Positions 9,827-64,000 of a stretch of 64,000 nucleotides of DNA are shown here, piece by piece. A program made the position numbers and the translations under genes. Numbering within the stretch: the first letter of the stretch is position 1; each line of letters opens with the position of its first letter. The notes under the pieces are model-generated. The model made no database searches, was not told the origin of the DNA, and saw only the letters and a list, made by a program, of their open reading frames with translations. Source of the stretch: Amphiscolops sp. MND2022 (taxonomy: Eukaryota); assembly GCA_964187785.1 (NCBI GenBank), contig OZ076409.1, forward strand, positions 3,474,001 through 3,538,000, written 5' to 3'.

Positions 9827-11390
9827 AAAGTTCAAAATGAAAAACAGACCCGCATACGCGCTAAAGGTCTTAGGTCTTTTTCATTCTGACTCGCACGAAT
9901 CCCAGTCATACAATTTATTGAAATTGCACACATGGGCTAATTTTGGCCTTGTTTCTCTCATTCCAGCCATACGATTTTAATGCCATTGCACATAAGGACT
10001 CTAATATGGTGTAGAAGGACTGTACAAAATTTCGTTCCAATCGAATGGACAGTTTTTGCGAAAATCAGAAAAGCTCGAAAAATGGCTAGCTTTTGATCAT
10101 TTTGGGGTTAGTTTTGGCTATGTTTCGCGCATCCAAGACCGATGCACGTCCTCACAGGATTGGCTAGTGGATGGGTTGATGACGACAAATGTCTTAACGT
10201 TTCATTGTTCTCAATTCCGGACGATCACTTATTAGCAGCACTGCAATTCCCCCACTTGTTTCTCAGAGTAGCTACATCGAAAATCATGGAGGTAATGGAA
10301 ACAATTTTGTGTTTTCCTGCGTGTCGGCCGTGACATTTGATGTTTTAGAGTTTGGGAAAGTAGTATCTTTTGGCTGTTGAAGATTACCTTCTCACCTGAG
10401 AGTGGTAATGAGATTGTACTTGGGTACTTCTTGTTAAATGATAACTGTTACAGCTTTCAAACCTTTTCAAAATGGGTGAAAAAAAACTTTGCATGATTTT
10501 GGTGCGCTAAACAACGTCAATTGAATAGCTTTGGGGTTAATTGAACGTCTTCTGTTGAGTTTTGATGAGACTTACATTTCCATTTTCAACTTTGACATTT
10601 CAACCCCTTATCCTGCTCACACTCAAAGCATCATGTCAACGTCAGGTCAAGATACCTACAAGATATCTACAATAGCGCATTCTTATCGTCTATTCGAGTA
10701 CTTTCCACATGCATCCACTTCTAATCCTAGTTGTGTGGAAGTTTCTTCGGGAGGCCTGCAGTTGGAGAAAAATTGGAGTTGAAAAAGTTTTTTTTTGAAT
10801 ATGAAGTCTCGTAATTTTCCAACGGGGAATGGTGAAACGCTGAAACAATGGCAAAAGGACCGAATGGTCTCTCATTGGTACGAATTTGGGCAGAATTTAC
10901 CCATTTTAACTGTATTTTTGAAAAACTGGGTGAAATTTGAAGTCCAAAAAGGCTGACTTTTCAAACATTTTTGGGCTAACTTTAACTATGTTTCTCGCAT
11001 CCGAGTCATACAAATTTGATGCCATTTCACATTTAGGACTCTAATATAGTGCAGCATGACTGTAGAAACTTTCGTTCGAATCGTATAGACAGTTTTTGAG
11101 AGATTCGATTGAGAAATTCGAATAAAGTCCAAAAATTATTGTTTTTTGGCCTAGTCTAGGTTAGTTTTTGCTATGTTTCTCACATCGAAGCCATACGATT
11201 TTGACGCCATTGCACATATAGGACTCTAAGATGGTGTAGAATGACTGTAGGAAATTTAGTTCGAATCGCATGGACAGTTTTAGAGATAATACTCATGAGA
11301 CCCCTAGTTGTTATGTAGTTCCACTTTCTGTCTCGGTAAAGGGGCCCTACCACTCCTTCGGGGTGTTTCTTCGGGCATTTCACCACCCAC
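9827..11390. mobile_element. Head-less, divergent array-type unit ('Y') with internal ~120-190 bp repeats; its tail forms the first junction
   Basis: The block ...GCCATT(G/T)CACAT..AGGACTCTAA.AT.GTG...GACTGTA.AAA.TT.GTTC.AATCG.AT.GACAGTTTT occurs at ~9950-10060, ~10985-11100 and ~11170-11285. The segment ends in GGGGCCCTACCA...CCACCTAG like the array tails. Confidence 0.55.
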
Positions 11391-12778
11391 CTAGCTGAGG
11401 ACTGCGGGTGTCGTTGGAATGGATTCGTCATACGTCGTCGAAGGGCATGCCTCGGCATGCCCACAGACGGTGGGCGTTGGTATGAATGTGTGGAGTTGAC
11501 TAAGACGGTCAGTTGTTAATTTAAAAAGTGTGATTTCAGAACCACACTAGTCTGTGTAACGCTTCGCTGCTCCAGCTATAACATGGGCTTAATATTGATT
11601 TCAACTAACGGCCATGTATATGTCACAAGAAAGTTTGAGGAAAAACAACGGGAAAAAAACGAGAGAAACAATGTACTTTGTTGTTCATTTTTCTTTATCG
11701 ATAGCCTCCAAAGTTGACGCAAGGTCAACTTCGAAGGCTATCGGGGGCGATAGAGCTCATCAATTTCCATAAATTCAGCAAAACAAGCCAGTACGCTAGT
11801 TTTGAGATTGAAAAGTTTCAATTAAGTGGTCTTGAAATAGTGAAAAAGTCATTTTTACATTAATTTTTGGACCATTTCCGGTCACATTGGGTAACTTCCG
11901 GTCATGGGGGTAACTTCCGGGATATGCTAAAGATCTTCCGGGACTTCGGTTGTCTAACATTTTATCTTTGTACAGATTTGAATGCCTCATTAGGCCTCAA
12001 GATGTTGGCATTTTGGTGCACAAGGTCAAAAAGCGGTCACAAAAAGGGGGGTTGACCCCACTTCCGGTCATGATGATACCTCCAAGTGGCCAACATATTG
12101 TCACTGGGTTGTGATCAGGTTGTATTTCAATTTCGATATCCTGCTAGGAGTCCCTAAAACGACTGCCTAATAATGAAAAAGGCTAAATTCTGCCAAAAAA
12201 CACAAAAAAGTGTCATTTCCGGTCCAAGGGGGGGTTGGGGGTGAAAACCACACATGTCGTCAGATTGACCCCAATACGTACAACAAAACATCAGGAGGGT
12301 GCGGGTACGCTAAATCCTCGGCTTCATGCTCAAAATTGGCTATTTTGCAAATTTGGGGGGTAAAACTGGAGGGGGGAACCCTTCTATCTCGGTGGGGGGT
12401 GATCCGAATGCAACCAAAATTTTCCACCAATTGTATTTTGAGATGCTGCAACTAAGTGTAAAAGTGAACGAGAACGCTAGCATGCCCTGGAAAAAAGTTA
12501 TGACGACACTTCGGATATAACGTCTAAAAAGGACGTTATTTCCGGTTTTTCGGCCATAAGTCAACAAAAAACAATTTGCGGGGAAAATGACAGTAAGAAA
12601 AAGTTCTTAGAATTTCGAGTTATGGCCGCATGCAAAAAATTATCCAAATCCTACGGTTAGATTCCAAAATCGCCTCTAAAACACCCATGTAGGATACTAG
12701 TATTATATGAAATTATTCTACGTCGGCGCAGGACCCTCCCCGCGCCTCCTTGTGCGTTCTGGGGACCGCCCCAACCAC
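11391..12778 (-). mobile_element. Array unit Z (1388 bp), unique body with repeated (AC/AT)TTCCGG motifs
   Basis: Bounded by junction cores. Has the conserved head core, the GATAGCC hairpin (11699-11743) and a tail stem-loop. Confidence 0.8.
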
Positions 12779-14771
12779 CTAGCAGCTACCGCACAAGTGC
12801 GGGCGCGCATAGATTTGGCGCGCGTCGTCGAAAGGCATGCCTCGGCATGCCTACGGACTATGGGCGTTGTTTCCCTATGTGGCGTTGTAGTGACAAGACG
12901 CCGTAGGTATGTAGGCGCGCGGATTGTACCATCACCGCGAATAACTATGGAAACAGTTGTTTAAGTATTTCAACCAACCAAGTACTAGTATGAATTTTGC
13001 GCTAATGGCAGTACATTGTGATAGTTATCGAAAACAAACGACTGAAAATGTAAAGTCGTGTGAACCGAATACACGGACGGTGGTCGAAAATTGTGGAAGT
13101 ATAAGCGACCTGGTTTAACCAACTAACCGTAAGACGATCGTACCAAAAGACGTTAGGAACAAACAAACAAATCAGAATTTAGTTTATTTTAGTGATAGCC
13201 TTCTCAAGTTGACGCAGAAGGTCAACTTAGAAGGCTATCACGAGATTCAGTTAACAGGTACTTGAAAAATAATCAAAATCTGTCCAGCCAGGATCGTAGA
13301 AAGACTACATGTCAGCATTGTGATTGACATTTTCAATCATCTTGAGTCCTTAAGGTGGCGTTAGAAGTATTAAAAGAGTTTTAAAGCTAAACAATTGCAA
13401 TTCAATCTTAGCAAAATAGCGTATTTTTTAGCGTCTACTTTTTTTACTGCTACAGATATAAAACATGGGAAGGGATTTTTTTCTTGAAACATTAAAGTAG
13501 AGAGTTTCTGATCAACCACATGATTCATTTGTATTCTAGGAATTAAATTAGATATCAGAAAGTATTTTTTAATGTTTGCTTTTCGAGATATTTAACGAAA
13601 AGTTTTTGAAAAACACTAGTATATGAGAAAAAAGTGTCTCATACCACGCCTTGAGCAACCCGATTCCTTCAAAATCTTCATATTAGTGCTGAAACTTACC
13701 CTACGCATTCTGTCTACATAGTGATTGACAAAAAAGAGTAAATATTTGTTCAAATCAACTTTCACTGTAATCCAAGGCTTCCGCGATGTTTACATCAATT
13801 GAACAGTATTGTTGAAAAAACGTCTTATCACGGCTCATATGTTTTTGGAGCGACTGATACCAGTCTCAATGGTGTTGTTGAGTATCATTGGCCCTACTGG
13901 TTACGTCAGAGTGCATATTTGTGCTTCAAAAGCTGAATTTCAAATTTCGACCTGACGAAAAATGGGTTTTTGAGACGAAATTTTTCTAAGTTAAGTTCCG
14001 AATGTCTGAAAAATGTCTGAAGAACGGGTGAAAAGATTTTTTTAAAACTTTATATTTCTATAAATGGTTATTACGTTGCCAGTAGGACCGTTCGTGAGCA
14101 ATAAGACTATATCCGACATGCCTCGATGAAAATATGATGTTGTAAATGACCGATTTGTAAAACAAGACTATGTTGTGAAATCCTTGTGAAACACCTATGA
14201 CCTCGAAAAAATTTTTAATTTCAGATTCGATGCTAACTGTTGAGTCTCTGGCAGCGAGTAGATACTAACAGAAACCATGGATAGCAAGGATTCTAAATTA
14301 AATAAAATAAAAAAATTTTTCTGAGGTTATTTTGACATATATGGTACTGATAGTAGTGAAAAAAATTTAAAAATGTCAAATTTTCAAAAAATTTAAAAAC
14401 TCTGCATCTTTTGTGTTTAGTGCATTGCCATGGTCACGAAATGATGGTTCCGACCTTGTTTCACAGTCAACGTCCAAAAATTAATGCAATCAGAGATATT
14501 TCACAAAAATTGCCAAAATCACTATTTTTGATGAAAAACCAAAGATAAATTTTTCAAAAAGTCATATTAGTAACATTTGGAGAGCAAAACGTCAGCAGGA
14601 AAAAGTTCTTAGATTGGGCGATAGGGTACACACAGCAATTTTCAGAGAATTTGTATGGCTCAATTTTCTAAACTCACATAATTTGGTACCTTTTCTATGG
14701 TATTTTGCCTCGGCCAGGGCCCCTACCCCGGCCTGCAATTTTTTTTTGACTACGGGAAACCTACCGCCCAC
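12779..14771 (-). mobile_element. Array unit A, copy 1 (1993 bp)
   Basis: Head CTAGCAGCTACCGCACAAGTGCGG; tail GGGAAACCTACCGCCCAC. Confidence 0.85.
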
Positions 14772-16757
14772 CTAGCCGGGGAGCGCGGGCGTAGGCCCGC
14801 GGTATTCGGCATACGTCGTCGAAGGGCATGCCTCGGCATGCCCACAGACTGTGCACGTCGCAACACTATGTGGCGTTGTACAGTATGACAGAGAGCGTGG
14901 CTGTAGGAAGTTGATGGGCCTAATAACAGTAGAAAAAGAAAAACAAAAACGGTAAAGACTCAATTTTGAATAATTTGGATAAGTTTGATGTTTATTTTTA
15001 GCACAAAATTAATAAATATGACTTCGAGTTCATAGGTATTTATCAAAGACTGAATGCAATCGACAGGTGACTTAATGGAAGGTACTAACGGTAGTATAGA
15101 ATCACGAAATTATATATAGACTGTCATTTCCAATGAACAAAAAAAAATTTTTGTTGAAAATTTTTTGATGTGATAGCCTTCCCAAGTTGACACAAGGCCA
15201 ACTTAAAAGGCTATCACGAGATTCAGTTAACAGGTACTTGAATAATTTGCGAAAATTGTTCAGTCAGGATCGTTGAAAGACCATATGTCACCATTGTGAA
15301 TAGCAGTTTTGATCATTTTGGGTGCGTAAGGTTGCGTTAGAAGTGTTTAAAGAGTTTTTAGACACAATCATTGCGATTCTATATTAGCAAAAAAGCTTAT
15401 TTTTCAGTTTCGATTTTTATTCCTGCTACAAATGTAACACATGCGAAGGGAAATATTTCGGAAAACGAAAGAGATGAAAGTTTCTGATCAACCACAGTGT
15501 TCATCTATAATGTAACCTTTGAATAAAGTAGTTGAAAGTATTTTGTCAAGTTTGTATTTCCAGATATTGGGCTAAAAATTTTGGAAAATACAGTAGTATA
15601 TGGGACAAAATTGTCTCATACCACCCCTTGAGCAACTCGATACCTTCAAAAACCTCATTATAGTGCTGAAACGCACCCTACGCATTCTGTGCACATAGTG
15701 ATTGACAAAACTGAGTAAAATTTTGATGAAATCACATTTCACAGTGATCGCTGGCTTGCGAGATCTTTACCTCAATTGAGACGTATTGCTCAAAGTAACG
15801 TCTTATCGCGACTCATATGTTATTGGAGCCACTGATACCAGTGTCAATCGTTGTTTTGAGTATCATGGGCCCCATGGGTTACGTCAGAGTTAATAATTTT
15901 GCTTAAAAAGTTGAATTTGATTATTCGACCTGACAAAAAATGGGTATTTTGGTCGAAATTTTTCTAAGTTAAGTTCCGAATGACTGAAAAATGACTGAAG
16001 ACCGGGTGAAAATATATTTTTTAAAACTTTCTAATACTATAAATGGTTCCTACATTGCCAGTGAGACCGTTCTAGAACATTAAGGCTATAGCCGACAAGC
16101 TTCGATGGAAATAATGTGTTCAAAATGACCAATTTGTAAATTGATACTAAGTTGAGAAATCCTTGTGAAACACCTAAGACCTCCAAAAAAATTTTATTTT
16201 CACATTGGATGCAAACTGTTGAGCGTTTTGCAGCGAGTAGGTACTGACGGAAACCATGGATACCGAGGTTTCTAAATTTGAGCAAATAAAAAATTTTTTC
16301 AGAGGTGTTTTTGACATATAGTGTACTGATACTAGTGAAAAAAAATCAAAAACGTCGAATTTTCAAAAAATGTAAAAACTTTACATCTTTTGTGTTCAGT
16401 GCAATGCCACAGCCACGAAATGAAGGTTCCAAGCTTGTTTCACAGTCAATGTCCAAAAATTAACACCTTTTGAGTTATCAGCGACTTTGTTAAAAATTTC
16501 CTCATTTTACCCTTCTATGTGAGTGGAAATTGGGCCATAACTTTTTATATATTATTTCAATCGCTTAACGTCAGCAGGAACTTCGATTCGTATGGGCATT
16601 TCAGGGCCGCATGCACTCCAAGTCCAAAAAATTGTGGTTAGATTTAAAAATCGCGATTCTGTGTCGCCGTTTCCTACTAGATATTCTTTGCTATTTGACG
16701 TCCGGCAGGACCCAACCCGCCGGCCGTAATTTTTGTTGGGGAATTACCCCCGCCCAC
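14772..16757 (-). mobile_element. Array unit B, copy 1 (1986 bp)
   Basis: Head CTAGCCGGGGAGCGCGGGCGTAGGCCCGCG; tail GGGGAATTACCCCCGCCCAC. Confidence 0.85.
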
Positions 16758-18765
16758 CTAGCTGCTACCGCACTCCAGAGTGCGGGTAAGGCTTATTTGG
16801 CATACGTCTTCGAAGGGCATGCCTCGGCATGCCCACAGACGGTGGGCGTTGATGTTGGTATGTGGCGTTGTTATACAAATCACAGGGTCATGACATAGGC
16901 TCAGATCATGGGTGACGGAAGACTGATAGCGGAAGAGAAAACAAATGTGATAGTATTCAAAGGTCAGAAGTTGTTATTTATTATTTAGACATAAAATTAT
17001 TTACCAAATAATAAACAAAAATGTCTTCGAGTTCATAGGTATTTTTTCAAACTCTGCATGCTATCGTCAGCTGACATGATGGAAGATACTAACGGTAGTA
17101 TACAATCACGAAAATAGGCATCGACAGCAAAATCCGATTAACAAATGGTAGTTTTGTTTATAGTTTTTGGTGGTGATAGCCTTCCCAAGTTGACACAAGG
17201 TCAACTTAAAAGGCTATCACAAGATTCAGTTTAAAGCTACATGTAAAATTTTCAAAAAATGTGCAGTCTGGATTGTAGAAAGAGTACATGTGAGGACTGT
17301 GAACGGTATTTCTAATAATATTGGGTCCATAAGGTTGCGTTAGAAGTATTTAAAGGGTATTTAGGCTCAATCATCGCGTTTCTATCTTAGCAAAATAGCG
17401 TATTTTTTATCTTCTGCTTTCTCTTCTGCCATAAATGTAACCCATGCGAAGGTATTTTTTCGGAAAACAAAAAAAATTGAGAGGTTCTGATCAACCACAG
17501 TGTTCATTCATATTCTAACCTTAGAATAAAGTATTTGAAAGCATTTTGCGAAGTTAGGTTTTTGAGATAATGGGCTAAAAATTTTGGAAAATATAGTACT
17601 ATATGGGAAAAAAATGTCTCATACACACCCTTGAGCAGGCCGAGTACATCAAAAACCTCATTATAGTGCTGAAACTCATCCTACGCACTCTGTGCACATA
17701 GTGATTGACAAAAATGAGTAAATTTTTGATGAAATCACATTTCACAGTGATCGCTGGCTTGCGAGATCTTTACCTCAATTGAGACGTATTGCTCAAAATA
17801 ACGTCTTATCGCGACTCATATGTTATTGGAGCCATTGATACCAGTGTCAATCGTTGTTTTGAGTATCATAGGCCCCATGGGTTACGTCAGAGTTAATAAT
17901 TTTGCTTGAAAATCTTAATTTCATTTTTCGACCTGACAAAAAATGGGTATTTTGGTCGAAATTTTTCTAAGTTAAGTTCCGAATGACTGAAAAATGACTG
18001 AAGACTAGGTGAAAATATTTTTTTAAAACTTTCTATTGCTATAAATGGTTCCTACGTTGCCAGTAGGACCGTTCTAGAACATTAAGGCTATAGCCGACAA
18101 GCCTCGATGAAAATATTGTGTTCAAAATGACCAACTTGTAAATTAAAACTAAGTTGTAAAATCCATGTGAAACGCTTATGACCCAAAAAAAATTTTTTAT
18201 TTTCACATTGGATGCAAACTGTTGGGTGTTTGGCTGCGAGTAGGTTCCGACAGTAACCATGGATACCAAGGTTTCCAATTTAAAGCAAATAAAAATTTTT
18301 TTATGATGTGTTTTTGACATATGGGGTACTGATAGTAGTGAAAAAAATTTCAAAAATCTCGAATTTTCGAAAAATGTAAAAACTTTACATCTTTTGTGTT
18401 CAGTGCAATGCCACAGCCACGAAATGAAGGTTCCAAGCTTGTTTCACAGTCAAAGTCCAAAAATTAACACATTTTGAGATATTAAGTGAAAAATTAGAAA
18501 TTTCCCAAAAATGTTGAAATTTTGAACAAAAAATTGGCCATAACTTTTTATAAAGTTTATAGAACGCTTAGCGTCAGCAGGAACTTCGTCTTGCAATAGG
18601 ATTTGAGGGCCGCATGCAAAAAATGAGCAAATTCTAATGGTTAGATTAAATTTTAGGTCTTTTTTTTGCAATTTCTGCTACATACCGCTAGCTTAAGGCG
18701 GATCGTCGGCCGCCAGGACCCTACCCGTCGGCCGAATACAAACGGGGTGAAATTTCCCCGCCCAC
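16758..18765 (-). mobile_element. Array unit C, copy 1 (2008 bp)
   Basis: Head CTAGCTGCTACCGCACTCCAGAGTGCGGGTAAG; tail CGGGGTGAAATTTCCCCGCCCAC. Confidence 0.85.
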
Positions 18766-20741
18766 CTAGCTGCTACCGCGGTAGTGACCTCGCAGGGGCG
18801 AATTTGCCATACGTCGTCGAAGGGCATGCCTCGGCATGCCCACAGACGGTGGGCGTCGGAACGCTATGTGGCGTTGTACTACTAACACTGCGAGGCCGCA
18901 CGCGATTGGTGTGGCTGATAACGGTAACGAATGTGAAAGTTAGAGTTTTTTAAGTTGGTAATAAAATAAAATTCTACTTTTGGAAAAAAAAACGATAAAA
19001 AATGTTTTTGATTTCATAGGTTTTTATCGAAAACTGAATGCAATTGTTATCTGACCTGCTGGATGGTACTAACGGTGGGATATAATCACGAAGTTAATCA
19101 TCAACAGCATTGTCTTATAAACGAGAAGTATTTTTGTTCATAGTTTTTTGTGGTGATAGCCTTGCCAAGTTGACACAAGGCCAACTTGAAAGTCTATCAC
19201 AAGAATCAGTTGACAGCTACATGTAAAATGTGCTAAAGTTGTGCATCCTGGAACGTAGAAAAAGCTAATGTGCGCATTGTAAACGGTTTTTTCAATCATT
19301 TTGAGTACGTAAGAGGGCGTTAGAAGTATTTAAAGATATATTGGTTACAATACTTGTAATTCTATCTTAGCAAAATAGCGTATTTTTTAGCTTCAGCTTT
19401 TTTTAATGCTACAAATGGGACACATGCGAAGGAATATTTATTGAAAAACATAAGAGTTGAGAGTTTCTGATCAACCACAATGTTCAATTATATTCTAAGA
19501 AGTGAATTAAGTATCGGAAAGTATTTTTTAGGTTTGCTTTGTGAGATATTGGGCGAAAAGTTATTCAAAAAAGCAGTAGTATATGAGACAAAAGTGTCTC
19601 ATACCACGCCTTGAGCAACCCGATTCCTTCAAAATCCTCATAGTAGTGCTGAAACTCACCGTACGCATTCTGTGTACATAGTGATTGACAAAAAAGAATA
19701 AATTTTTGTTCAAATCAACATTCACTGTGATTCAAGGGTTCCGAGATGTTTACTTCATATGAACAGTTTTGTTAAAAATAACGTCTTATCGCGGCTCATA
19801 TGTTATTGGAGCCACTGATACCAGTCTCAATGGTGTTGTTGAGTATCATTGGCCCCACTGGTTACGTCAGAGTGCATATTTGTGCTTCAAAAGCTGAATT
19901 TCAAATTTCGACCTGACGAAAAATGGGTTTTTGAGACGAAATTTTTCTAAGTTAAGTTCCGAATGACTGAAAAATGACTGAAGACCGGGTGAAAATATTT
20001 TTTTTAAACTTTCTATTACTATAAATGGTTCCTACGTTGCCAGTGGGACCGTTCTAGAACATTAAGGCTATAGCCGACAAGCCTCGATGAAAATCTTGTG
20101 TTCAAAATGACCTTTTTGTAAATTATTACTAAGTTGAGAAATCCTTGTGAAACGCTTATGACTCAGAAAAAATTTTTATTTTAACATTGGATGCAAACTG
20201 TTGGGTGTTTGGCTGCGAGTAGGTTCCGACAGAAACCATGGATACCAAGGTTTCCAAGTTAAAGCAAATAAAAATTTTTTTCTGAGGTGTTTTTGACATA
20301 TATGGTACTGATAGTAGTGAAAAAAATTTCAAAAATGTCAAATTTTCAAAAAATGTAAAAACTTTACATCTTTTGTGTTCAGTGCAATGTCACAGCCACG
20401 AAATGAAGGTTCCAAGCTTGTTTCACAGTCAATGTCCAAAAATTATTGCATTTTGAGATATTTGCCCTTTTATGAAAAATTTCATCATTTTTACATCTAA
20501 TGGGGACCAAAAATTGGCCATAACTTTTTTTATAATGTTTTTTGGGCTTAACGTCAGCAGGAACTTCGTCTCGTATGGGCAAATTAGGGCCGCATGCAAA
20601 AAATGAGAAGAATCGTACGGTTAGATTTTAAAATCGGCTGTTGAGGGTGTGCTTTTTCTTATAAGCGTTAGCTGTTTTGGGAGTTCGCGGCAGGACCCTA
20701 CCCGCCGCTCTAGTTTTTTTTGGGGTGAAATCCCCGCCCAC
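18766..20741 (-). mobile_element. Array unit D (1976 bp)
   Basis: Head CTAGCTGCTACCGCGGTAGTGACC; tail GCGGCAGGACCCTACCCGCCGCTCTAG...CCCCGCCCAC. Confidence 0.85.
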
Positions 20742-22018
20742 CTAGCCGCTACCGCAAAAGTGCGGGCGCGCTTGTGTTTGGCGCGCGTCGTCGAAAGGCA
20801 TGCCTCGGCATGCCTACGGACTATGGGCGTTGGTAAGGGTATGTGGCGTTGACGTTTGTTATGTAAATGATGGGTATTGTCAGTACCAAACGTACAGTAT
20901 ACGTCAAGTCAGAAGCAAAATCCAGCCAAACAACTTGTATTTATATGCACTAGCATAGAGGGCGTCGCATAAAACCAAATATGATCTGTAGTACCTGGAC
21001 TTTAGGAAGTACATTCTCATCTCCCCCAAGAGGGAGATGGAATGTACACAACTGTTTCGTTCTCTCAGATTGATTATGCAGCATCAAAAATTTTCAAATA
21101 GGGTCAAAAGAACTTGAAAGGCTTTGGAGCATTACACAGCTACTAATGACTAACGGAAATGACCAACAAAGCAAGTTTTTAATTTAAAAAATGATAAATT
21201 TTTTCCACTGACAAAATTCATGAAAAGTGTCGAAATTTGATTTAAAGAAAGTAAAAAGAATTTTAAAGGCTTTCTTTAGCTAATACAAGAAATCAGTTTG
21301 TTTCTGAGCATTTGTTTCTACCTGTAAGTCGCCTTAAACTCAACTTTAGGTTTTTAAATTCTGATATTTTCACTCGTTAGATTGAAAATGAGTGATTTTT
21401 CACTATTAAAAATGGCGTAAGTTGAACTGCGGAATAAAATTATTTCGTTGTCAGATTCAGGTTCCCCGTATGCGAAAACCTATATGGGAGAGCAAAAAAC
21501 ATCAAAAACGTGCAAAAAAAGGTTTTTTAAAAACATTTTAAAAATATTTAGTGGAACTTAGTAAAAATTCAATAAATTGTATCAAAAAACACTGAAATGA
21601 AAAAAAGTGTGAAATTTTGAAAAAACTAAACACTTTTGACAAAATCTGATTATGCAAGCCAATTGATGGCTTTTTGCAGACCTTATAACCTCTTATGACT
21701 TACTTCACCAAAATCAACCAGTTCTGAGGAAATTGACCAAAAAAAGCGAAAAAGTCAAATTTTAGCCTTAGACGGTCAAAAATTTTTCAATTTGACCAAC
21801 TTTTTGAATTTTCTGGGCAAAATGTCACTAGGACAAAGTCATTTGTTTACCAAGACGATGCTGTATGCCAATTTTCAGCCAAATCGTACGGGCCAATTTT
21901 TTAAACTCGCAGATTTTCACATTTTTCCTCCGTAAGAAATTGGTAACGGCCCGGGACCCTACCCCGGCCTAAAAAAAGTGGACTACGCTCATAAAGAAAA
22001 TCCCATGCTAACGACCAC
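20742..22018 (-). mobile_element. Array unit E, copy 1 (1277 bp); body unrelated to the 2-kb class
   Basis: Head CTAGCCGCTACCGCAAAAGTGCGG; tail CCCATGCTAACGACCAC. Confidence 0.85.
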
Positions 22019-24023
22019 CTAGCTGCTACCGCACTCCAGAGTGCGGGTAAGGCTCATTTGGCATACGTCGTCGAAGGGCATGCCTCGGCATGCCCACAGA
22101 CGGTGGGCGTTGATGTTGGTATGTGGCGTTGTTATACAAATCACAGGGTCATGACATAGGCTCAGATCATGGGTGACGGAAGACTGATAACGGAAGAGAA
22201 AACAAATGTGATAGTATTCAAAGGTTAGAAGTTGTTATTTATTATTTAGAAATAAAATTATTTACCAAATAATAAACAAAAATGTCTTCGAGTTCATAAG
22301 TATTTTTTCAAACTCTGCATGCTATCGTCAGCTGACATGATGGAAGATACTAACGGTAGTATACAATCACGAAAATAGGCATCGACAGCAAAATCCGATT
22401 AACAAATGGTAGTTTTGTTTATAGTTTTTGGTGGTGATAGCCTTCCCAAGTTGACACAAGGTCAACTTAAAAGGCTATCACAAGATACAGTTTAAAGCTA
22501 CATGTAAAATTTTAAAAAAATGTGCAGTCTGGATTGTAGAAAGAGTACATGTGAGGACTTTGAACGGTATTTCCAATCATATTGGGTCCATAAGGTTGCG
22601 TTAGAAGTATATAAAGGGTATTTAGGCTCAATCATCGCGTTTATATCTTAGCAAAATAGCGTATTTTTTATCTTCTGCTTTCTCTTCTGCCATAAATGTA
22701 ACCCATGCGAAGGTATTTTTTCGGAAAACAAAAAAATTGAGAGGTTCTGATCAACCACAGTGTTCATTCATATTCTAACCTTAGAATAAAGTATTTGAAA
22801 GCATTTTGCGAAGTTAGGTTTTTGAGATAATGGGCTAAAAATTTTGGAAAATATAGTACTATATGGGAAAAAATGTCTCATACACACCCTTGAGCAGGCC
22901 GATTACATCAAAAACCTCATTATAGTGCTGAAACTCATCCTACGCACTCTGTGCACATAGTGATTGACAAAAATGAGTAAAATTTTGATGAAATCACATT
23001 TCACAGTGATCGCTGGCTTGCGAGATCTTTACCTCAATTGAGACGTATTGCTCAAAATAACGTCTTATCGCGACTCATATGTTATTGGAGCCATTGATAC
23101 CAGTGTCAATCGTTGTTTTGAGTATCATAGGCCCCATGGGTTACGTCAGAGTTAATAATTTTGCTTGAAAATCTTAATTTCAATTTTCGACCTGACAAAA
23201 AATGGGTATTTTGGTCGAAATTTTTCTAAGTTAAGTTCCGAATGACTGAAAAATGACTGAAGACTAGGTGAAAATATTTTTTTAAAACTTTCTATTGCTA
23301 TAAATGGTTCCTACGTTACCAGTAGGACCGTTCTAGAACATTAAGGCTATAGCCGACAAGCCTCGATGAAAATATTGTGTTCAAAATGACCAACTTGTAA
23401 ATTAATACTAAGTTGAGAAATCCTTGTGAAACGCTTATGACCCAGAAAAAATTTTTATTTTCACATTGGATGCAAACTGTTGGGTGTTTGGCTGCGAGTA
23501 GGTTCCGACAGAAACCATGGATACCAAGGTTTCCAAGTTAAAGCAAATAAAAATTTTTTTCTGAGGTGTTTTTGACATATATGGTACTGATAGTAGTGAA
23601 AAAAATTTCAAAAATCTCGAATTTTCGAAAAATGTAAAAACTTTACATCTTTTGTGTTCAGTGCAATGCCACAGCCACGAAATGAAGGTTCCAAGCTTGT
23701 TTCACAGTCAAAGTCCAAAAATTAACACATTTTGAGATATTAAGTGAAAAATTAGAAATTTCCCAAAAATGTTGAAATTTTGAACAAAAAATTGGCCATA
23801 ACTTTTTATAAAATTTATAGAACGCTTAGCTTCAGCAGGAACTTCGTCTTGCAATAGGATTTGAGGGCCGCATGCAAATTTTGAGCAAATTCTAATGGTT
23901 AGATTAAATTTTAGGTCTTTTTTTTGCAATTTCTGCTACATACCGCTAGCTTAAGGCGGATCGTCGGCCGCCAGGACCCTACCCGTCGGCCGAATACAAA
24001 CGGGGTGAAATTTCCCCGCCCAC
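22019..24023 (-). mobile_element. Array unit C, copy 2 (2005 bp)
   Basis: Same head, body and tail as 16758-18765. Confidence 0.85.
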
Positions 24024-27000
24024 CTAGCCGCTACCGCAATCGGGTGTAGATATAAAAAGTAGTTGGCATACGTCGTCGAAGGGCATGCCTCGGCATGCCC
24101 ACAGACGGTGCTCGTTGGTAACAGTAAGTGGCATTATACAAATGACGACAGAGTAGAGACATGGTAAGGTGTTTAGTATGATGGATGATAAGGGTAGAAG
24201 ACACCAAAACCAAAACTATATCAATTTCAAAAAAAATAATATATTTTTTCGGTTGTGATTTGAAAACGCTAATCACATAATTCTGTAGTTAAACTCTTCG
24301 GGATTGCAAAATTTGGATGACAGTTATTTGGCAAACGTACATTCCCACAGAAGGGAAGGGATGTACTTAACGAAAGTACCTAACGGCATTGAAAATTAAG
24401 AACAACAAAGACTTGTGAGTCAATTCTATCATAATATCTCAAATACCTCCGTCATGTACACTAAGCTAACGTCACCAAAAGAACACACGCATGCATGCTC
24501 GAAACAAACATTCTGTTCTTTCTGAAAGCTTTCCACGGTGTTATTAATATAGAAGTTAGTTTTCCACTATTGTCGTCACAGATCGATTTATCCTCAAAAG
24601 ATTATAAGTCAACGTCATCTTGAGATAAAGGCCAGTTCTTTACATTATTTATCCCATCCATTAAAGTGGATTCAGCATTCATTCACTTGCTATCTTGATT
24701 GTGTGGAGTTTCATGAATTTGGAAGGCCGGAAAGATTTGAAAAAACTTGTGAACTTCCTCAGTCAAACCTTTGTTCACTGGGTAATACAATCGAACTTAA
24801 CTGCGGCAAATGTGTCTTTTGGTTTTGTTCTGCAGAAATAGAAGCTGAAGCAAAACTTCATGAAGGTACTAGAAGCATTTTTATTCTTTCATCGTTTCAG
24901 CAGTTACATACAATGTTACAAAAGAATCAAACTTCGAAGTTTTTGGCTTTTGAAAAGTACATTCTCATCTCCCCCGATGGGGAGATAGAATGTACTCAAG
25001 TGTTTCTTGTTATTTAATGGTTAAGATTAAAGTTGATTGGACGTATTCCATTGAGATTTCGATGAAACTTAGGGTCCATTTATGTATTATCACATGTCAA
25101 CCTCTTATGAAGCTCACTCTCAAAAAAAATTAAGTATAAATGTTATCGCTAATTTAAAAATATTAGACCGGGTATATATGTGGAATGATTCACTTTTTAT
25201 ATGGAACAGATTATGGTGTTCTTACCAAAAAATCGGTGGTTTTAAATATAGCTCAAAAGATTGCCAATACCTGATTTGGTATTCTCTGAAGGTCATATGG
25301 ATTTGATAGAACGTCAAGAGGCTGTGGTTTGGATGATTTTTTGACAATTTTTATATCTAAAGTTTCTTTTTCGTGTCATTTTTGCCCATTTTTGGAGGGT
25401 TTAATATTTTTTCATATCCACCAAAAATCATTCTAAACAAAATTCTGATAATCAACAATAGAAGTAGAGTTGATCGGTATGTGATAGTTTTCTGGGCTAT
25501 TCTCATACGGCAAATGGCGTGCATTTGAAATTTTTCAGGAAACGGTATGTTTTTCTTTCCCAAAAATGTCGGCTTTTTCACATATTGCTCAAAAACGGGT
25601 AAAACCTGTTTTACCATACTCTGTGGACCACGTGGAGTTGATAGAACCCCAAGAAGCTGTGGTTTGTATGATTTTTTGACTTTTTAAAATTTTAAGGTCA
25701 ATTTTTTCGTGTCATTTTGGCCCATATTTGGAGGGTTCAAAATTTTTTCATATCCATTAAAAATCTTTCTAAGCAACTTTCTGATAATTTACAATAGAAG
25801 TAAAGTTGATCGGTATGTGATAGCTTTCTGTGCTATTCTCATAGAGCAAATGGCGTGCATTTGAAATTTTTTAGGAAATGGTATGTATTTCTTTCCCAAA
25901 AATGTCGGCTTTTTCATATATTGCTCAAAAACGGGTAAAACCTGATTTAGCATACTCTGTGGATCACGTGGAGTTGATAGAATCCCAAGAAGCCGTGGTT
26001 TTGATGATTTTTTTACATTTTAAAATTTTTAGGTCATATTTATCGTGTAATTTTTTCCCTGTTTTGGAGGATTTAAATTTTTTAAATATCCATCAAAACC
26101 TATTCTAAACTAAATTCTGTTCATCTACAATGGAAGTGGAGTTGATCGGTATGTGGTAGTTTTCTGTGCTACTCTCATACAGCAAATGGCGTGCATTCAA
26201 TATTTTTTAAGAAATGGTATGTTTTTCTTTCCCAAAAATGTCGGCTTTTTCACATATTGCTCAAAAACGGGTAAAACCTATTTTAGCGTACTCTGTGGAC
26301 CACGTGGAGTTGATAGAACCCCAAGAAGCTGTGGTTTTGATGATTTTTTGACATTTTAAAAATTTAAGGTCAATTTTTTCGTGTAATTTTGGCACATTTT
26401 TGGAGAGTTCAAAATTTTTTAATATCCATCAAAATTCAATCAAAACAAAATTCTAATAATCTACAAGGGGAGTAGAGTTGATCGGTATATGATAGTTTTC
26501 TGTGCTACTCTTATACGTCAAATGGGGTGCATTTGAAATTTTTTAGGAAATGGTATGATTTTTAGGAATTTCGTCAAAAAAGTTTGCTTTTTAAATTTAT
26601 TTAAATTGAAAAGATACGGGGTTATTACACATGTCATATAACCAACTTTTTGAGCGGAATCCAATGGTGCCATCGAAAAAATTATTTACCAGCTAACATT
26701 TTTAGTACTGCCAAAATAACCGAAAAAGGAAACAACTTTTTCATGATTTGGCGATTTGTTCATCCGGACATGGTCCAAACACCAATACTAGCATTCTTCC
26801 ATCATATTTATTGTTCTAACACTTCAACCCATCATAAAGAAACATTTCAATTATATTTTGAATATTAACTTCATGTGACAAAGGGTTGAAATATTTTAAA
26901 AAGTTAGTAGAAAAGAGGAAGTTTTTGTTTTATAGAACGCCCTGAGCAACCCATATTATGGTAGAACCTCATTTCACGGCTGAAACTAACACAACCGGTT

Positions 27001-28794
27001 CTGTGTAAATAGTGATTGACGAAAAAGAAATATTTTTTGATGAAATCACTTCTCACGGTGATTCAAGGCTTTCAACATGTTTACTTCGGATGAGAGTTTT
27101 TGTGTTAAAAACATACTATCGCATCTCATATGTTATTAGATCATATGGTGACAGTCTTTTTGTTGTTTTTGAGTAATTTGGGCCCAACTTTTTGCTTCAG
27201 ACAGAAAAGTATTGCTTCCTAAACTAAATTTAAAATTGCGACCTGACAAAAATGGGTTTCTCAGAAAAAAAATTATTACCTAAGTGTTAATAAATAGACC
27301 TCGGTCTTATTTATAGCGATTGTCAGCATTGTTAATGGTATTTTCGAACCTCCTGGGTAAAAGAAGTGGCATCAGAAGTTGTTGAAACGTTTTTGCTCTG
27401 CATCATTGCATGTCTGTCCGTCCAAAATTGGGATTTTTGGAGCTACTGGTATTTTTCCTGTCACATATGTAACGCATGCGAAGGGTTTTTTTCTAAAAAC
27501 CAAATAGTTAATAGTTTCTGATCAACCAAACTGTTCATCTATATTCTAAGCTTTCACTAAAGTAACTGAAAGTACTTTGTCGAGTTAGTTTTACCAGATA
27601 ATGGGCTAAAATTTTTGGAAAATACAGTAGTATATGGGAAAAAAATGTCTCATACCACCCCTTGAGCAACCCGAATCCTTCAAAAACCTCATTATAGTGC
27701 TGAAACTCACCCTACGCACTCTGTGCACATAGTAAATGGCGAAAATGGGTAAATTTTTGATGAAATCACATTTCACTGTGATCCCAGGCTTGCGAGATGT
27801 TTACTTCGATTTAGAGGTTTTGCTCTGTATAACGTCTTATCGCGGATCATATGTTATCGAAGCTACTGATACCAGTCCCAATCGTGTTTTTGCGTATCAT
27901 GGGCCCCACTGGTTACGTCAGAGTTAATAATTTTGCATAAAAAGGTGAATTTCAATTTTCGACCAGAGGAAAAATGGGTTTTTGAGACGAAATTTTTCTA
28001 AGATAAGTTCCGAATGTCTGAAAAATGACTGAAGAACGGGTGAAAAAAATTTTTTATAACTTTGTATTTCTATAAATGGTTAATACGTTGCCAGTAGGAC
28101 CATTCGTGAGCAATAAGACTCTATCCGACACGCCTCGATGGAAATATGATGTTGAAAATGACCAATTTGTAAATTGAAACTAAGTTGTGAAATCCTTGTG
28201 AAACACCTATGACCTCGAAAAAAAATTCATATTCACTTTGGATGCAAACTGTTGAGTGTTTGGCTGCGAGTAGGTTCCGACAGAAACCATGGATACCAAG
28301 GTTTCTAAATTTAAGCAAATAAAAATTTTTTTCTGAGGTGTTTTTGTCACATTGGTTACATATAGTAGTGAACACCGAGTCAATTTGGTCAAATTTTTGA
28401 AAAATGTAAAAAATTTAGATCTTTTGGGTCTAGTGCATTGCTAGGGCAAAGAATCGAAGGTTTAAACCAGTGATAGGTTGATTGTCACAAGTTTTTCAAT
28501 TTTTTGCATTCGAGCTGTTTGTAAAAAGTTTCTCAAAAATACCTCAAAAATCGCACCAAAAAGTGGCTATATCTCGTTACACAATGAAACCATTGCTTAA
28601 CGTCAGCAGGAACTTCGTCTTGTATGCCCAAATTAGGGCCGCATGCAAAAAATGGTACAAATCCTATGGTTCAAAAAAAAGTTCGGTGCCGGAAAAATTT
28701 TCTCTAGTATATAGCGCCGTAAGCTTGGTAAATAGAAGCTCCCGACAGGACCCTACCCGCGGTCGCAAAAAAAGTGGAGATATATCCCCCCCAC
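24024..28794 (-). mobile_element. Array unit F, subtype 1 (4771 bp)
   Basis: Head CTAGCCGCTACCGCAATCGGGTGTAG; internal 336-bp repeats; tail GGAGATATATCCCCCCCAC. Confidence 0.85.
25210..26570. repeat. About 4 x 336-bp tandem repeat inside F1
   Basis: Anchor GTRRAGTTGATCGGTAT at 25464, 25800, 26136 and 26472. Confidence 0.85.
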
Positions 28795-30072
28795 CTAGCC
28801 GCTACCGCAAAAGTGCGGGCGCGCTTGTGTTTGGCGCGCGTCGTCGAAAGGCATGCCTCGGCATGCCTACGGACTATGGGCGTTGGTAAGGGTATGTGGC
28901 GTTGACGTTTGTTATGTATATGATGGGTATTGTCAGTACCAAACGTACAGTATACGTCAAGTCAGAAGCAAAATCCAGCCAAACAACTTGTATTTATATG
29001 CACTAGCATAGAGGGCGTCGCATAAAACCAAATATGATCTATAGTACCTGGACTTTAGGAAGTACATTCTCATCTCCCCCAAGAGGGAGATGGAATGTAC
29101 ACAACTGTTTCATTCTCTCGGATTGATTATGCAGTATCAAAAATTTTCAAATAGGGTCAAAAGAACTTGAAAGGCTTCGGAGCTATACACAGCTACTAAT
29201 GACTAACGGAAATGACCAACAAAGCAAGTTTTTAATTTAAAAAATGATAAAGTTTTTCCACTGACAAATTTCATGAAAAGTGTCGAATATTGATTTAAAG
29301 AAAGTAAAAAGAATTTTAAAGGCTTTCTTTAGCTAATACAAGAAATCAGTTTGTTTCTGAGCATTTGTTTCTACCTGTAAGTCGCCTTAAACTCAACTTT
29401 AGGTTTTTAAATTCTGATATTTTCACTCGTTAGATTGAAAATGAGTGATTTTTCACTATTAAAAATGGCGTAAGTTGAACTGCGGAATAAAGTTACTTCG
29501 TTGCCAGATTCAGGTTCCCCGTATGCGAAAACCTATATGGGAGAGCAAAAAACATCAAAAACGTGCAAAAAAAGGTGTTTTAAAAACATTTTAAAAATAT
29601 TTAGTGGAACTTAGAAAAAATTCAATAAATTATATCAAAAAACATTGAAATGAAAAAAAAGTGTGAAATTTTGAAAAAACTAAACACTTTTGACAAAATC
29701 TGATTATGCAAGCCAATTGATGGCTATTTGCAGACCTTATAACCTCTTATGACTCACTTCACCAAAATCAACCAATTCTGAGGAAATTGACCAAAAAAAG
29801 CGAAAAAGTCAAATTTTTGCCTTAGACGGTCAAAAAATTTTCAATTTGACCAACTTTTTGAATTTTCTGGGCAAAATGTCACTAAGACAAAGTCATTTGT
29901 TTACCAAGACGATGCTGTATGCCAATTTTCAGCCAAATCGTACGGGCCAATTTTTTAAACTCGCAGATTTTCACATTTTTCCTCCGTAAGAAATTGGTAA
30001 CGGCCCGGGACCCTACCCCGGCCTAAAAAAAGTGGACTACGCTCATAAAGAAAATCCCATGCTAACGACCAC
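28795..30072 (-). mobile_element. Array unit E, copy 2 (1278 bp)
   Basis: Near-identical by eye to 20742-22018. Confidence 0.85.
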
Positions 30073-32071
30073 CTAGCCGCTACCGCACTCCAGAGTGCGG
30101 GATAAGCTCATTTGGCATACGTCGTCGAAGGGCATGCCTCGGCATGCCCACAGACTATGGGCGTCGGAACGCTATGTGACGCGACGTTGTAATAAGGACA
30201 TACATTGCGAGGACGTTGGGGATGGCTGGAGATGATAACGGTCGAAAAGATTGAAGTTATACTTCCTAGTGGTTTTAATTAGGTTTTTTTAATTATTTGT
30301 TTTTATTTTTTGTAAACAAAAAAAAGAGAATTGACTTCAAGTTCATACATTCTTATCAAACACTGAAAGCAATCGTTAGCTGACCTGATGGAAGGATCTA
30401 ACGATAGGATCGAATTACGAAAATAGGCATCGACAGCAAAGTCAAATTAACAAATGGTAATTTTGTTTATAGTTTTTTGTGGTGATAGCCTTCCCAAGTT
30501 GACACAAGGCCAACTTAAAAGGCTATCACAAGATTCAGTTTAAAGCTACATGTAAAACTTTCAAAAAAAGTGCAGTCTGGATTGTAGAAAGAGTTTATGT
30601 GAGGACTGTGAACGGTATTTCCAATCATATTGGATCCATAAGGTTGCGTTAGAAGTATTTAAAGGGTATTTAGGCACAATCATCGCGTTTCTATCTTAGC
30701 AAAATAGCGTATTTTTTATCTTCTGCTTTCTTTTCTGCCATAAATGTAACCCATGCGAAGGTATTATTTCAGTAAAACAAAAAAATGAGAGGTTCTGATC
30801 AACCACAGTGTTCATTCATATTCTAACCTTAGAATAAAGTAATTGAAAGCATTTTGCGAAGTTAGGTTTTTGAGATAATGGGCTAAAAATTTTGGAAAAT
30901 ACAGTACTATATGGGAAAAAAATGTCTCATACACCCCCTTGAGCAGGCCGATTATTTCAAAAACCTCATTATAGTGCTGAAACTCATCCTATGCACTCTG
31001 TGTACATAGTAATTGACAAAAATATGTAAACTTTTGGTGATCTCACATTTCACTGTGATCCCAGGCTTCCGAGATGTTTACTCCGATTTAGAGGTTTTGC
31101 TCTAAATAACGTCTTATCCCGACTCATATGTTATTGGAGCCACTGGTATCAGTCCCAACGGTGTTTTTGAGTATCATTAGCCCCACTGGTTACGTCAGAG
31201 TAAAAAATTTTGCTTCAAGTGCTGAAATTCAAATTTCGACTTCACCAAAAATGGGTATTCGAGACGAAAATTTTCTAAGTTAAGTTCCGAATGACTGAAA
31301 AATGACTGAAGACCGGGTGAAAATTTTTTTTAAAACTTTCTATTACTATAAATGGTTCCTACGTTGCCAGTGGGACCGTTCTATAACATTAAGACTATAG
31401 CCGACAAGCCTCGATGAAAATATTGTGTTCAAAATGACCAATTTGTAAATTAAAACCAAGTTGAGAAATCCTTGTGAAACACCTAAGACCTCGAAAAAAA
31501 TTTTAAATTCACACTGGATGCAAACTGTTGGGTGTTTGGCAGCGAGTAGGTTCCGACAGAAACCATGGATACCAAGGTTTCCAATTTGAAGCAAATAAAA
31601 ATTTTTTTCTGATGTGTTTTTGACATATGGGGTACTGATAGTAGTGAAAAAAATTTCAAAAATCTCGAATTTTCGAAAAATGTAAAAACTTTACATCTTT
31701 TGTGTTCAGTGCAATGCCACAGCCACGAAATGAAGGTTCCAAGCTTGTTTCACAGTCAAAGTCCAAAAATTAACACATTTTGAGATATTAAGTGAAAAAT
31801 TAGAAATTTCCCAAAAATGTTGAAATTTTGAACAAAAAATTGGCCATAACTTTTTATAAAGTTTATAGAACGCTTAGCGTCAGCAGGAACTTCGTCTTGC
31901 AATAGGATTTGAGGGCCGCATGCAAATTTTGAGCAAATTCTAATGGTTAGATTAAATTTTAGGTCTTTTTTTTGCAATTTCTGCTACATACCGCTAGCTT
32001 AAGGCGGATCGTCGGCCGCCAGGACCCTACCCGTCGGCCGAATACAAACGGGGTGAAATTTCCCCGCCCAC
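30073..32071 (-). mobile_element. Array unit G, copy 1 (1999 bp); own head with C-type tail
   Basis: Head CTAGCCGCTACCGCACTCCAGAGTGCGGGATAAG...GGAACGCTATGTGACGCG; tail as in C. Confidence 0.85.
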
Positions 32072-35000: not shown

Positions 35001-36839
35001 ACGGTAGAACCTCATTTCACGACTGAAACTAACACAACGGGTTCTGTGTATTTAGTGATTGACGAAAAAGAAATATTTTTTGATGAAATCACTTCTCACG
35101 GTGATTCAAGGCTTTCAACATGTTTACTTCAGAATGAGAGTTATTGTGTTAAAAACATACAGTCGCATCTCATATGTTATTAGAGCATATGGTGATAGTC
35201 TTTTTGTTGTTGTTGAGTATTTTGGGCCCAACGGTTTGGTTCAGAGTGAAAACTATTGCTTCCAAAACCAAATTTGAATTTGCGACCTGACAATAATGGG
35301 TTTCCGAGAAAAAAATTTAAAACCTAAGTGTTAGTAAATAGACCTCGATCTTATTTATTGCGAATGTCAGCATTGTTAATGGTGTTTTCGAACCTCTTGG
35401 GTAAAAAAAGTGGCGTCAGAAGTTGTTGAAACGTTTTTGTTTTGCATCATTGGAAGTCAGTACGTCCAAATTTTTGATTTTTGGAGCTACTGGTATTTTT
35501 CCTGCCACTAATGTAACACATGCAAGGCAGTTTTTTTCTAAAAACAAAATAGTTAATAGTTTCTGATCAACCACAGTGTTCATCTATATACTAAGCTTCG
35601 AATAGAGTAACTGAAAGTATTTTGTCAAGTTAGTTTTTCCAGATAATGGGCTAAAATTTTTGGAAAATACAGTAGTATATGGGAAAAAAATGTCTCATAC
35701 CACACTTTGAGCAACCCGAATCCTTCAAAAACCTCATTATAGTGCTGAAACTCACCCTACGCACTCTGTGCACATAGTAATTGGCGAAAATGGGTAACTT
35801 TTTGATGAAATCACATTTCACAGAGATCCCTGGCTTGCGAGATGTTTACCTCAATTGAGACGTATGGCTAAAAATAACGTCTTATCGCGACTCATATGTT
35901 ATTTGAGCCAATGGTACCAACCCCAATCGTTGTTTTGAGTATCATGGGCCCCACTGGTTACGTCAGAGTTAATAATTGTGCTTAAAAAGCTGAATTTGAG
36001 TTTTCGACCTGACAAAAAATGTGTTTTTGAGACGAAATTTTTCTAAGATAAGTTCCGAATGTCTGAAAAATGATGGAAGAACGGGTGAAAAAATTTTTTT
36101 ATAACTTTGTATTTCTATAAATGGTTAACACGTTGCCAGTAGGACCGTTCGTAAGCAATAAGACTCTATCCGACATGCCTCGATGGAAATATGATGTTGA
36201 AAATGACCAATTTGTAATATGAAACTAAGTTGTGAAATCCTTGTGAAACACCTATGACCTCGAAAAAAAATTTAAATTCACATTGGATGCAAACTGTTGA
36301 GTGTTTGGCTGCGAGTAGGTTCCGACAGAAACCATGGATACCAAGGTTTCTAAATTTAAGCAAATAAAAATTTTTTTCTGAGGTGTTTTTGTCACATTGG
36401 TTACATATAGTAGTGAAACCCGAGTCAATTTGGTCAAATTTTTGGAAAATGTAAAAGTTTTAGATCTTTTGGGTCTAGTGCATTGCTAGGGCAAAGAATC
36501 GAAGGTTTAAACCAGTGATAGGTCGATTGTCACAAGTTTTTCAATTTTTTGCATTCGAGCTGTTTGTAAAATTTTTCTCAAAAATACCTCAAAATTCGCA
36601 CCAAAAAGTGGCTATATCTCGTTACACAATGAAACCATCGCTTAACGTCAGCAGGAACTTCGTCTTGTATGCCCAAATTAGGGCCGCATGCAAAAAATGG
36701 TACAAATCCTATGGTTCAAAAAAAAGTTCGGTGCCGGAAAAATTTTCTCTAGTATATAGCGCCGTAAGCTTGGTAAATAGAAGCTCCCGACAGGACCCTA
36801 CCCGCGGTCGCAAAAAAAGTGGAGATATATCCCCCCCAC
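32072..36839 (-). mobile_element. Array unit F, subtype 2, copy a (4768 bp)
   Basis: F head and tail; body diverged from F1. Confidence 0.85.
33260..34610. repeat. About 4 x 336-bp tandem repeat inside F2a
   Basis: Anchor at ~33508, 33844, 34179 and 34515. Confidence 0.85.
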
Positions 36840-63800: not shown

Positions 63801-64000
63801 CGTGTTCTGTGTATAAAGTGATTGACGAAAAAGAAATATTTTTTGATGAAATTGCTTTTCACGGTGATTCAAGGCTTTCAACATGTTTACTTCGGATGAG
63901 AGTTTTTGTGTTAAAAACCTACTGTCGCATCTCATATGTTATTAGGGCATATGGTAACAGTCTTTTTGTTGTTTTTGAGTAATTTGGGCCCAGCGGTTTG
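60841..64000 (-). mobile_element. Array unit F, subtype 3, cut by the window end
   Basis: F head; body colinear with F1 and F2 but diverged from both. Confidence 0.8.
62025..63370. repeat. About 4 x 336-bp tandem repeat inside F3
   Basis: Anchor at ~62269, 62605, 62941 and 63278. Confidence 0.85.

Follow-up and report, generated by a model that had tools for sequence, protein, structure and literature searches.

The 64,000-nt stretch of the Amphiscolops genome analysed here (the window, G000:C1:3474001-3538000 of a 1.07-Gb genome) contains a series of units that are non-coding copies of a divergent Helitron-like group, inserting after CTNG and likely moved by RepHel-encoding units with which they share their ends. 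The group numbers thousands of copies, which follow one another directly in mixed arrays, mostly one-way and up to about 6 Mb long, and the end-to-end arrangement has likely arisen because a rolling-circle enzyme uses the same CTAG to end a copy and to pick its landing site. Each element reads GTG...CTAG, and the sequence of the joint between two elements fits the elements' own target, CTNG|DT.

On the minus strand, positions 16785-16758 of the window read CCGCACTC-TG-GAGTGCGG-TAGCAG-CTAG and are followed by GTGG. The minus strand of the window contains 23 copies of the string CTAGGTGG and the plus strand none, the control value being 0.43 copies with both strands summed (30 dinucleotide shuffles); G plus CTAGGTGG forms the invariant core of the joint, and a palindrome lies ~60 nt upstream of it. 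From 11391 upward the joints divide the window into non-coding units of 1.3-4.8 kb, which represent about eight families in mixed order (Table 1). The ends of families C, G, A, E and B are as a sequence-only reading of this DNA had described them, including the joint at which CTAG is followed by GTGG. No 3' end was found for the last unit, Y, which is apparently decayed or interrupted. No open reading frame in the window exceeds 261 aa, and none could be assigned inside the array. A Penelope or retrozyme reading was set aside, as the Rfam scan of window positions 8000-30000 gave no match at E<=0.1 and thus no ribozyme support. The internal 44-bp inverted repeat is kept between otherwise divergent families, Z included, and family H carries internal tandem repeats of ~335 bp at 25194-26563, 33309-34606, 57312-58610 and 62121-63407.

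Table 1. Coordinates of the joint, the adjoining units and their terminal features in the window
Feature	Position	Strand	Remarks
CTAG 3' terminus of unit C	16758..16761	-	joint between 16758 and 16757; boundary set by solo copies and empty paralogues
8-bp hairpin, its end 10 nt short of the terminus	16768..16785	-	only families C/G/A/E/B
Conserved 3' subterminal palindrome GGGCATGCC-GA-GGCATGCCC, end type I	16815..16834	-	common to 7/18 RepHel units
Internal 44-bp inverted repeat	17175..17218	-	several non-autonomous families; 13 copies in window
Non-autonomous unit C, 2,008 bp, GTGG...CTAG, without coding ORF	16758..18765	-	
5' stem-loop conserved core GGTAGGGTCCT, unit C	18715..18725	-	40 nt from unit start
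Next non-autonomous unit B, 1,986 bp, GTGG start	14772..16757	-	
5' stem-loop of unit B, covarying arms flanking GGGTTGGGTCCT	16695..16730	-	
Mixed head-to-tail array, 23 joints in window	11391..64000	-	runs past window to G000:C1:3636881
Last unit Y, GTGG start	10590..11390	-	5' region akin to autonomous elements, 72-75% over 220-290 bp

Canonical Helitrons start with TC, carry a short hairpin about 10-12 nt upstream of CTRR and insert between A and T. An altered start and an altered target had been proposed for the present units, and both are borne out: the start is GTG, and the target is CTNG|DT in place of A|T. Across four arrays, the starts were GTGG in 97 and GTGC in 40 of 137 units, and the ends were CTAG at 107, CTGG at 25 and CTTG at 1 of 133 joints, counts that are conditioned on a joint finder demanding CTNG followed by GTGS. 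Forty array ends or solo copies were fetched, 32 of them with element-type sequence upstream, and the next letters at these 32 ends were AT (24), TT (7) and AC (1), so that 31 have T at +2. Of 15 host left flanks, 12 were CTNG and the other three GTCC, ATAT and ACAA. Comparison of the empty paralogue L102 with the filled L105 revealed an exact insertion at CTAG|AT, and comparison of L127 (twice) and L037 with the filled L109 an exact insertion at CTTG|AT, in both cases with no duplication. At L121 two neighbouring host CTAG sites, 17 bp apart, are occupied, the first by one unit and the second by two, and the host spacer between them is intact. The target is CT(A/T/C/G)G|(A/T/G)T, that is CTNG|DT, with CTAG the best, and there is no target-site duplication. 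Solo copies with empty paralogues place the boundary exactly after CTAG, where the sequence-only reading had put it; shifted registers, in which the element would start with CTAG, or with TG at an N|T target, are ruled out by L109 and L116. One solo target (L105, L102, L199-L210) is a short tRNA-like repeat, itself abundant and at times tandem at ~258-bp spacing. Another solo unit, L042:6616-7880, follows CTTG and lies among long ORFs that look like an LTR retroelement.

The conserved covarying structure of the group is a 5' stem-loop and not the 3' hairpin. Its arms, which lie about 40 nt from the 5' end and flank GGG(T/G)AGGG(T/C)CC, covary among 50 variants, and although these variants are related and their families not independent, the arms fold with a mean dG of -8.7 as against -6.1±0.2 for swapped arms (0/100) and have a longest complement of 4.7 as against 3.2 (0/1000). 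These folding and longest-complement tests replaced a strict count of contiguous stems, which understated the structure. Of the 50 end types seen at least twice across the fetched arrays, just 9 have a 3' hairpin that is more stable than shuffles (z<-2; median z -0.24), and it is thus a trait of some families rather than of the group. A hairpin 10-12 nt before the terminus, as claimed earlier, does stand at 16 of the 23 window joints (stem of at least 5 bp) but does not hold as a general feature of the group, and it is absent or misplaced at the other seven (four H, two F, one Z), in the very families in which it had been called weak. The count of 9 in 50 also rules out the hairpin as a general terminator, and the terminator is probably not the hairpin. 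The 5' ends, for example 18765-18715 on the minus strand, contain four top-strand G-tracts, a candidate G-quadruplex that may compete with the stem-loop. The 3' palindrome (16815-16834, minus strand), with about 5,000 genomic copies, resembles two abutting p53 half-sites.

Partners that could move these units were found within the arrays themselves. Autonomous array units measure 12-17 kb and encode a Y2 RepHel of 2,100-2,800 aa, often with a GIY-YIG domain, together with a predicted RPA-like protein. One unit of 13,675 bp between two joints holds a 2,373-aa ORF with matches to Helitron_like_N (5e-10), PIF1 (6e-11) and, at the C-terminus and below cut-off, GIY-YIG (4e-4). At least 151 genomic sequences match the Rep region; they cluster in array blocks and include dozens of intact frames of more than 2,100 aa, and 18 further long ORFs were picked from them for intact frames and diversity. 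All 18 have the HUH and YxxxY motifs; 17 of the 18 units end at a joint with another unit next, for 11 a 5' joint, too, lies within the sequence fetched, and 7 have the window's 3' motif at their end. Moreover, the non-autonomous copies share both the 5' stem-loop and the 3' motif with autonomous units. The two RepHel units of the window's own array have another end type, CCACTGG, and for this reason the putative exact partner of families A-H is assigned from terminal motifs of 60-83 bp. When the Rep region was modelled with AlphaFold, the sole Foldseek match of the model at E<=0.001 was Helraiser (7LCC, 1.1e-6), a partial fold match with a TM of 0.35 and a pLDDT of 66. The second ORF, which the sub-lineages have in common, shows similarity to RPA/CST OB folds. 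One autonomous unit has a third frame, 222 codons long (L031:4863-5528, minus strand), that lacks a Pfam match, and ~76-bp minisatellites occur in the autonomous unit L031/L032. The partners that share these ends thus encode RepHel and not a tyrosine recombinase, a DDE transposase or a reverse transcriptase, in line with the rolling-circle class to which the units had been attributed, and RepHel very probably mobilises the array elements.

The window's array extends over ~150 kb and comprises 58 units of the form GTG...CTAG/CTGG, head to tail, beginning at C1:3636881 after a host CTGG; two of the 58 carry intact RepHel ORFs. In the genome as a whole there are 4,965 exact copies of the 3' motif (control 0), and after one common end signature GTGS comes next 1,544 times and A, C or T 41 times, a count that excludes G without a following TGS. 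Between 70.8 and 76.05 Mb of C1, joints were present in 13 of 13 sampled 8-kb pieces, 12 on the plus strand and 1 on the minus strand (L226), and outside this interval in 0 of 7; together with the genome match lists, these samples therefore indicate a block of about 6 Mb, which was sampled and not read whole. Small arrays of 2-8 units are found at dispersed sites, and old solo 3' ends are numerous. At L043 (G000:C1:23.975-23.980 Mb) two arrays of opposite orientation meet across a 200-N assembly gap.

The order of units within arrays bears on how the arrays grew. Among 137 units in four arrays, which fall into 90 subfamilies at 97%, identical neighbours were at the chance level (3 of 129 pairs, null 3.2) and no unit triplet was repeated (0/125). 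Neighbours shared an end type in 117 of 129 cases (null 82.6±4.0), a clustering that could reflect waves of activity rather than recognition. It is conceivable that the elements are mobilised by RepHel but that their arrays are mainly rolling-circle concatemers or the products of multi-unit 3' read-through, reshuffled by unequal crossing-over. Tandem Helitron arrays and head-to-tail junctions are known from the published material consulted (PMC5876387, PMC12001565), repeated unit pairs exceed the null (12 vs 5.2±2.7), and a two-unit block of 6.9 kb recurs in the window at 98.6%. This excess, together with that of same-family neighbours at 88% identity (28, null 16.7), indicates that some multi-unit copying or duplication occurs too. 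As the main process, however, concatenation predicts identical neighbours and repeated blocks, at odds with the order just described, and L121 has separate insertions at separate CTAG sites, so that we consider this explanation unlikely.

A recognisable true 3' end precedes 133 of 133 joints, in spite of 329 CTNG|DT sites inside the units. The narrower hexamer CTAG|DT is depleted on the transferred (top) strand only: with one unit counted per family, 9 sites lie on the top strand and 38 on the bottom strand (p=2.5e-5), and in 12 autonomous units the numbers are 30 and 60, the corresponding controls being 76 vs 71 for host sequence and 34 vs 22 for HLE1/2 loci. From this one-sided depletion we infer that the enzyme reads the hexamer on the transferred strand and that the hexamer, not the hairpin, ends the copy. 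The same depletion is an indirect sign of rolling-circle transposition through single-stranded or circular intermediates. About 1.9 million CTAG|DT sites are expected genome-wide; hence the hexamer alone cannot explain stacking. One could suppose nonetheless that the hexamer suffices for insertion and that the clustering is due to a chromatin niche, at a centromere or in heterochromatin, or to counter-selection of insertions at other sites. The concentration of the largest array in one ~6-Mb block would agree with this, as would the many old solo 3' ends and the fact that within arrays joints are the main CTAG|DT sites (133, against 22 internal ones). The dispersed small arrays argue against it, as does the true 3' end before every joint; likewise, exact C/D-type starts are preceded genome-wide by CTAG in 78 of 78 cases and by CTGG ends in none, and a niche is in our view slightly less probable still than concatenation. 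The chance-level identical neighbours, the lack of repeated triplets and the one-strand depletion point instead to one-by-one insertion at joints, and such self-targeting is, judged from these genome patterns, the probable mode of growth. Stacking at own ends, as the sequence-only reading had suggested, is seen in the joints of GTG...CTAG units, and targeting by the enzyme is what we infer from the patterns in the genome.

Under one-by-one insertion, and in analogy to Helraiser and IS91, the Y2 Rep would make a first top-strand nick behind the CTAG of the 5' joint, a step that the 5' stem-loop probably guides, and the helicase and the predicted RPA-like protein would peel the strand off. A second nick would be made where the next CTAG|DT occurs, after which the freed strand, or a circle made from it, would be joined to a target that had itself been nicked at such a hexamer. 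One signal would thus serve as origin, terminus and target, and each insertion would leave two such sites. The joint is proposed to be the best target in the genome because it carries both subterminal motifs, and by the same analogy a chromosomal joint with both motifs is likely the preferred target. Arrays would grow unit by unit and keep a single orientation, and each end type would favour its own kind. Helraiser does precisely cleave its own end-to-end junction on the plus strand, according to the part of PMC5876387 drawn on here. Precise joints without duplication, mixed order and palindromes near the joints might also recall cassettes of a tyrosine recombinase or integron-like system, with CTAG|GTG as crossover core and the RepHel units as passengers; yet the long ORFs found inside array units are RepHel and the conserved ORF2, and only one strand shows depletion of the target signal, which makes such cassettes very improbable. 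That collapsed or mis-joined repeats in the assembly produced the arrays hardly merits consideration, for although one array abuts an assembly gap, the units differ copy by copy in non-repetitive order, the joints are exact and the array starts join unique host sequence.

The same genome also houses HLE1 elements and HLE2-type elements bearing DUF6570, with no array joint at those loci; its HLE1 ends in hairpin-CTAG|T within unrelated flanks in 6 of 6 copies. The array elements belong to the RepHel superfamily but fail the HLE1 and HLE2 features tested: by the definitions in PMC11417382, they fail the TC start, A|T target, motif 2 and clade of HLE1, and the DUF6570, T|T, motif 2 and clade of HLE2. 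All 137 detected starts, conditioned as above, were GTGG or GTGC, and solo boundaries agree with a non-TC start; insertion is at G|AT, G|TT or G|GT, neither the A|T of HLE1 nor the T|T of HLE2, and the HLE1-type 3' CTRR is present (CTAG 107 and CTGG 25 of 133 joints). DUF6570 was found in 8 of 9 ORFs or ORF pieces from HLE2-type loci and was absent from array protein P0001 and the 10 relatives scanned. Rep motif 2 of HLE1 and HLE2 is ExQxRG(S/L)(P/L)HxH in the portion of PMC4067079 drawn on; array proteins have EFQ-x7-HxH in its place, with the canonical motif in 0 of 18 own ORFs and the canonical 5-residue spacer in 0 of 107 readable motifs, 36 of the 143 newly listed top database matches being unreadable. 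In a Rep+helicase tree the array proteins are separated from HLE1+HLE2 by 1.55 changes per column (100/100), the tree being unrooted, with references from this genome alone, meeting long branches and HLE2 support of just 72/25. Near-duplicates and partial rows were omitted from the trees (Rep, 34 of 45 rows; Rep+helicase, 20 rows).

A profile search returned at least 431 protein clusters (50% identity) at E<=1e-30; a threshold of E<=0.001 gave 2,067, and the weaker matches possibly include other Helitrons. A scan of metagenomes gave 21 loci, among them one (L233) that keeps the 5' stem-loop at 42% amino-acid identity to the nearest ORF compared; no arrays were seen at the 21 loci, most of whose contigs are too short to show one, and no relative was found in viral contigs. 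Several metagenome relatives (L238, L240, L245-L247) are flanked by dense ORFs without a Pfam match, several of them on the opposite strand. The literature searched holds no account of the group, although Repbase, Dfam, closed papers and supplements may do so. On balance we lean towards an undescribed lineage, although it may coincide with the Paramecium clade or with Repbase entries.

Comparisons with published systems draw on parts of the sources cited. In common with HLE1 and Helraiser, the array elements have a Y2 RepHel, a PIF1-type helicase, an ORF in the 5'-end-to-CTRR direction, an RPA-like accessory gene and non-autonomous partners, and make no target duplication (PMC11417382, PMC5876387, PMC4067079); they differ from HLE1 in the GTG start, the CTNG|DT target, the optional 3' hairpin, the conserved 5' stem-loop, EFQ-x7-HxH without RG, GIY-YIG and the mixed arrays. 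With HLE2 (Helentron, Helitron2, proto-Helentron) they share long ORFs and, in some database relatives of the array protein, OTU; some HLE2 have 5' hairpins, and one plant HLE2 family captured GIY-YIG (PMC11417382, PMC5148889). Unlike HLE2, they lack DUF6570 and T|T insertion, show no terminal inverted repeats on inspection by eye, and form a separate tree branch. The nearest concept is the third clade of Helitrons in Paramecium (PMC13085455), compared here by its published description, which likewise stands apart from HLE1/HLE2, has long ORFs and sequence-specific oriented insertion, and has an end (CCAA) that resembles its target repeat, as the array end resembles its target. That clade, however, has a C4A2 telomeric target, telomere-repeat flanks and ORFs of 9-10 kb, and the array elements have neither telomeric-repeat insertion nor a CCAA end; the main text of PMC13085455 does not contain 'GIY', nor does the part drawn on describe mixed end-to-end arrays.

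IS91 offers a parallel in site choice; it too is a Y2 HUH element without duplication that uses related tetranucleotides for target and terminus (PMC13181058). Its targets are CTTG, GTTC, GTCC and CTCG, with T at position 2, and its terminal cleavage is at CTCG; host flanks of the array elements comprise CTAG, CTTG, CTCG, CTGG and one GTCC. IS91 differs in being bacterial and without a fused helicase, and large stacked arrays are not described in the portion of PMC13181058 drawn on. By analogy, then, the group would work like a Helitron with IS91-like site choice. Replitrons (PMC10288648) are also eukaryotic HUH transposons with oriented, site-specific insertion, but have a Y1 Rep, no helicase and short direct terminal repeats. 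The Terminons of bdelloid rotifers (PMC6431247) form long head-to-tail arrays of mobile elements as well, though as 5'-truncated telomeric retroelements with a different chemistry. Published Helitron tandems, as far as the sources go, are short or single-family (PMC12001565) or nested self-insertions (PMC5148889), and a centromere atlas mentions Helitrons, in the text drawn on, merely in passing (10.64898/2026.09.17.752431).

Current schemes recognise two Helitron clades and one ciliate clade. With confidence slightly above even, we suggest that the group is an unnamed, widespread third rolling-circle lineage (RepHel-GIY-YIG plus an RPA-like gene) that prefers the joints of its own elements, and that dozens of co-active families build ordered one-way arrays of up to ~6 Mb, which would be at once a self-made safe harbour, an insertion record and maybe a chromosome domain such as a centromere. 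Because detectors seek TC...CTRR or short inverted repeats, they would overlook such elements or take them for satellite DNA. If a Helitron-like enzyme chooses its sites as IS91 does, it becomes possible to test how Helitron target choice and termination are encoded and how transposons become megabase tandem domains. An integrase that makes no duplications, keeps to one orientation and places its cargo at its own joint could likewise attract interest as a tool; the joint sequence, the target hexamer and many intact ORFs are known.

Just beyond the decayed last unit Y, the window contains a 261-codon frame (8060-8845, minus strand) without a Pfam match. By eye it looks like the frame beside a 1,274-aa ORF at G000:C5:24.26 Mb, and the two probably belong to another mobile element.
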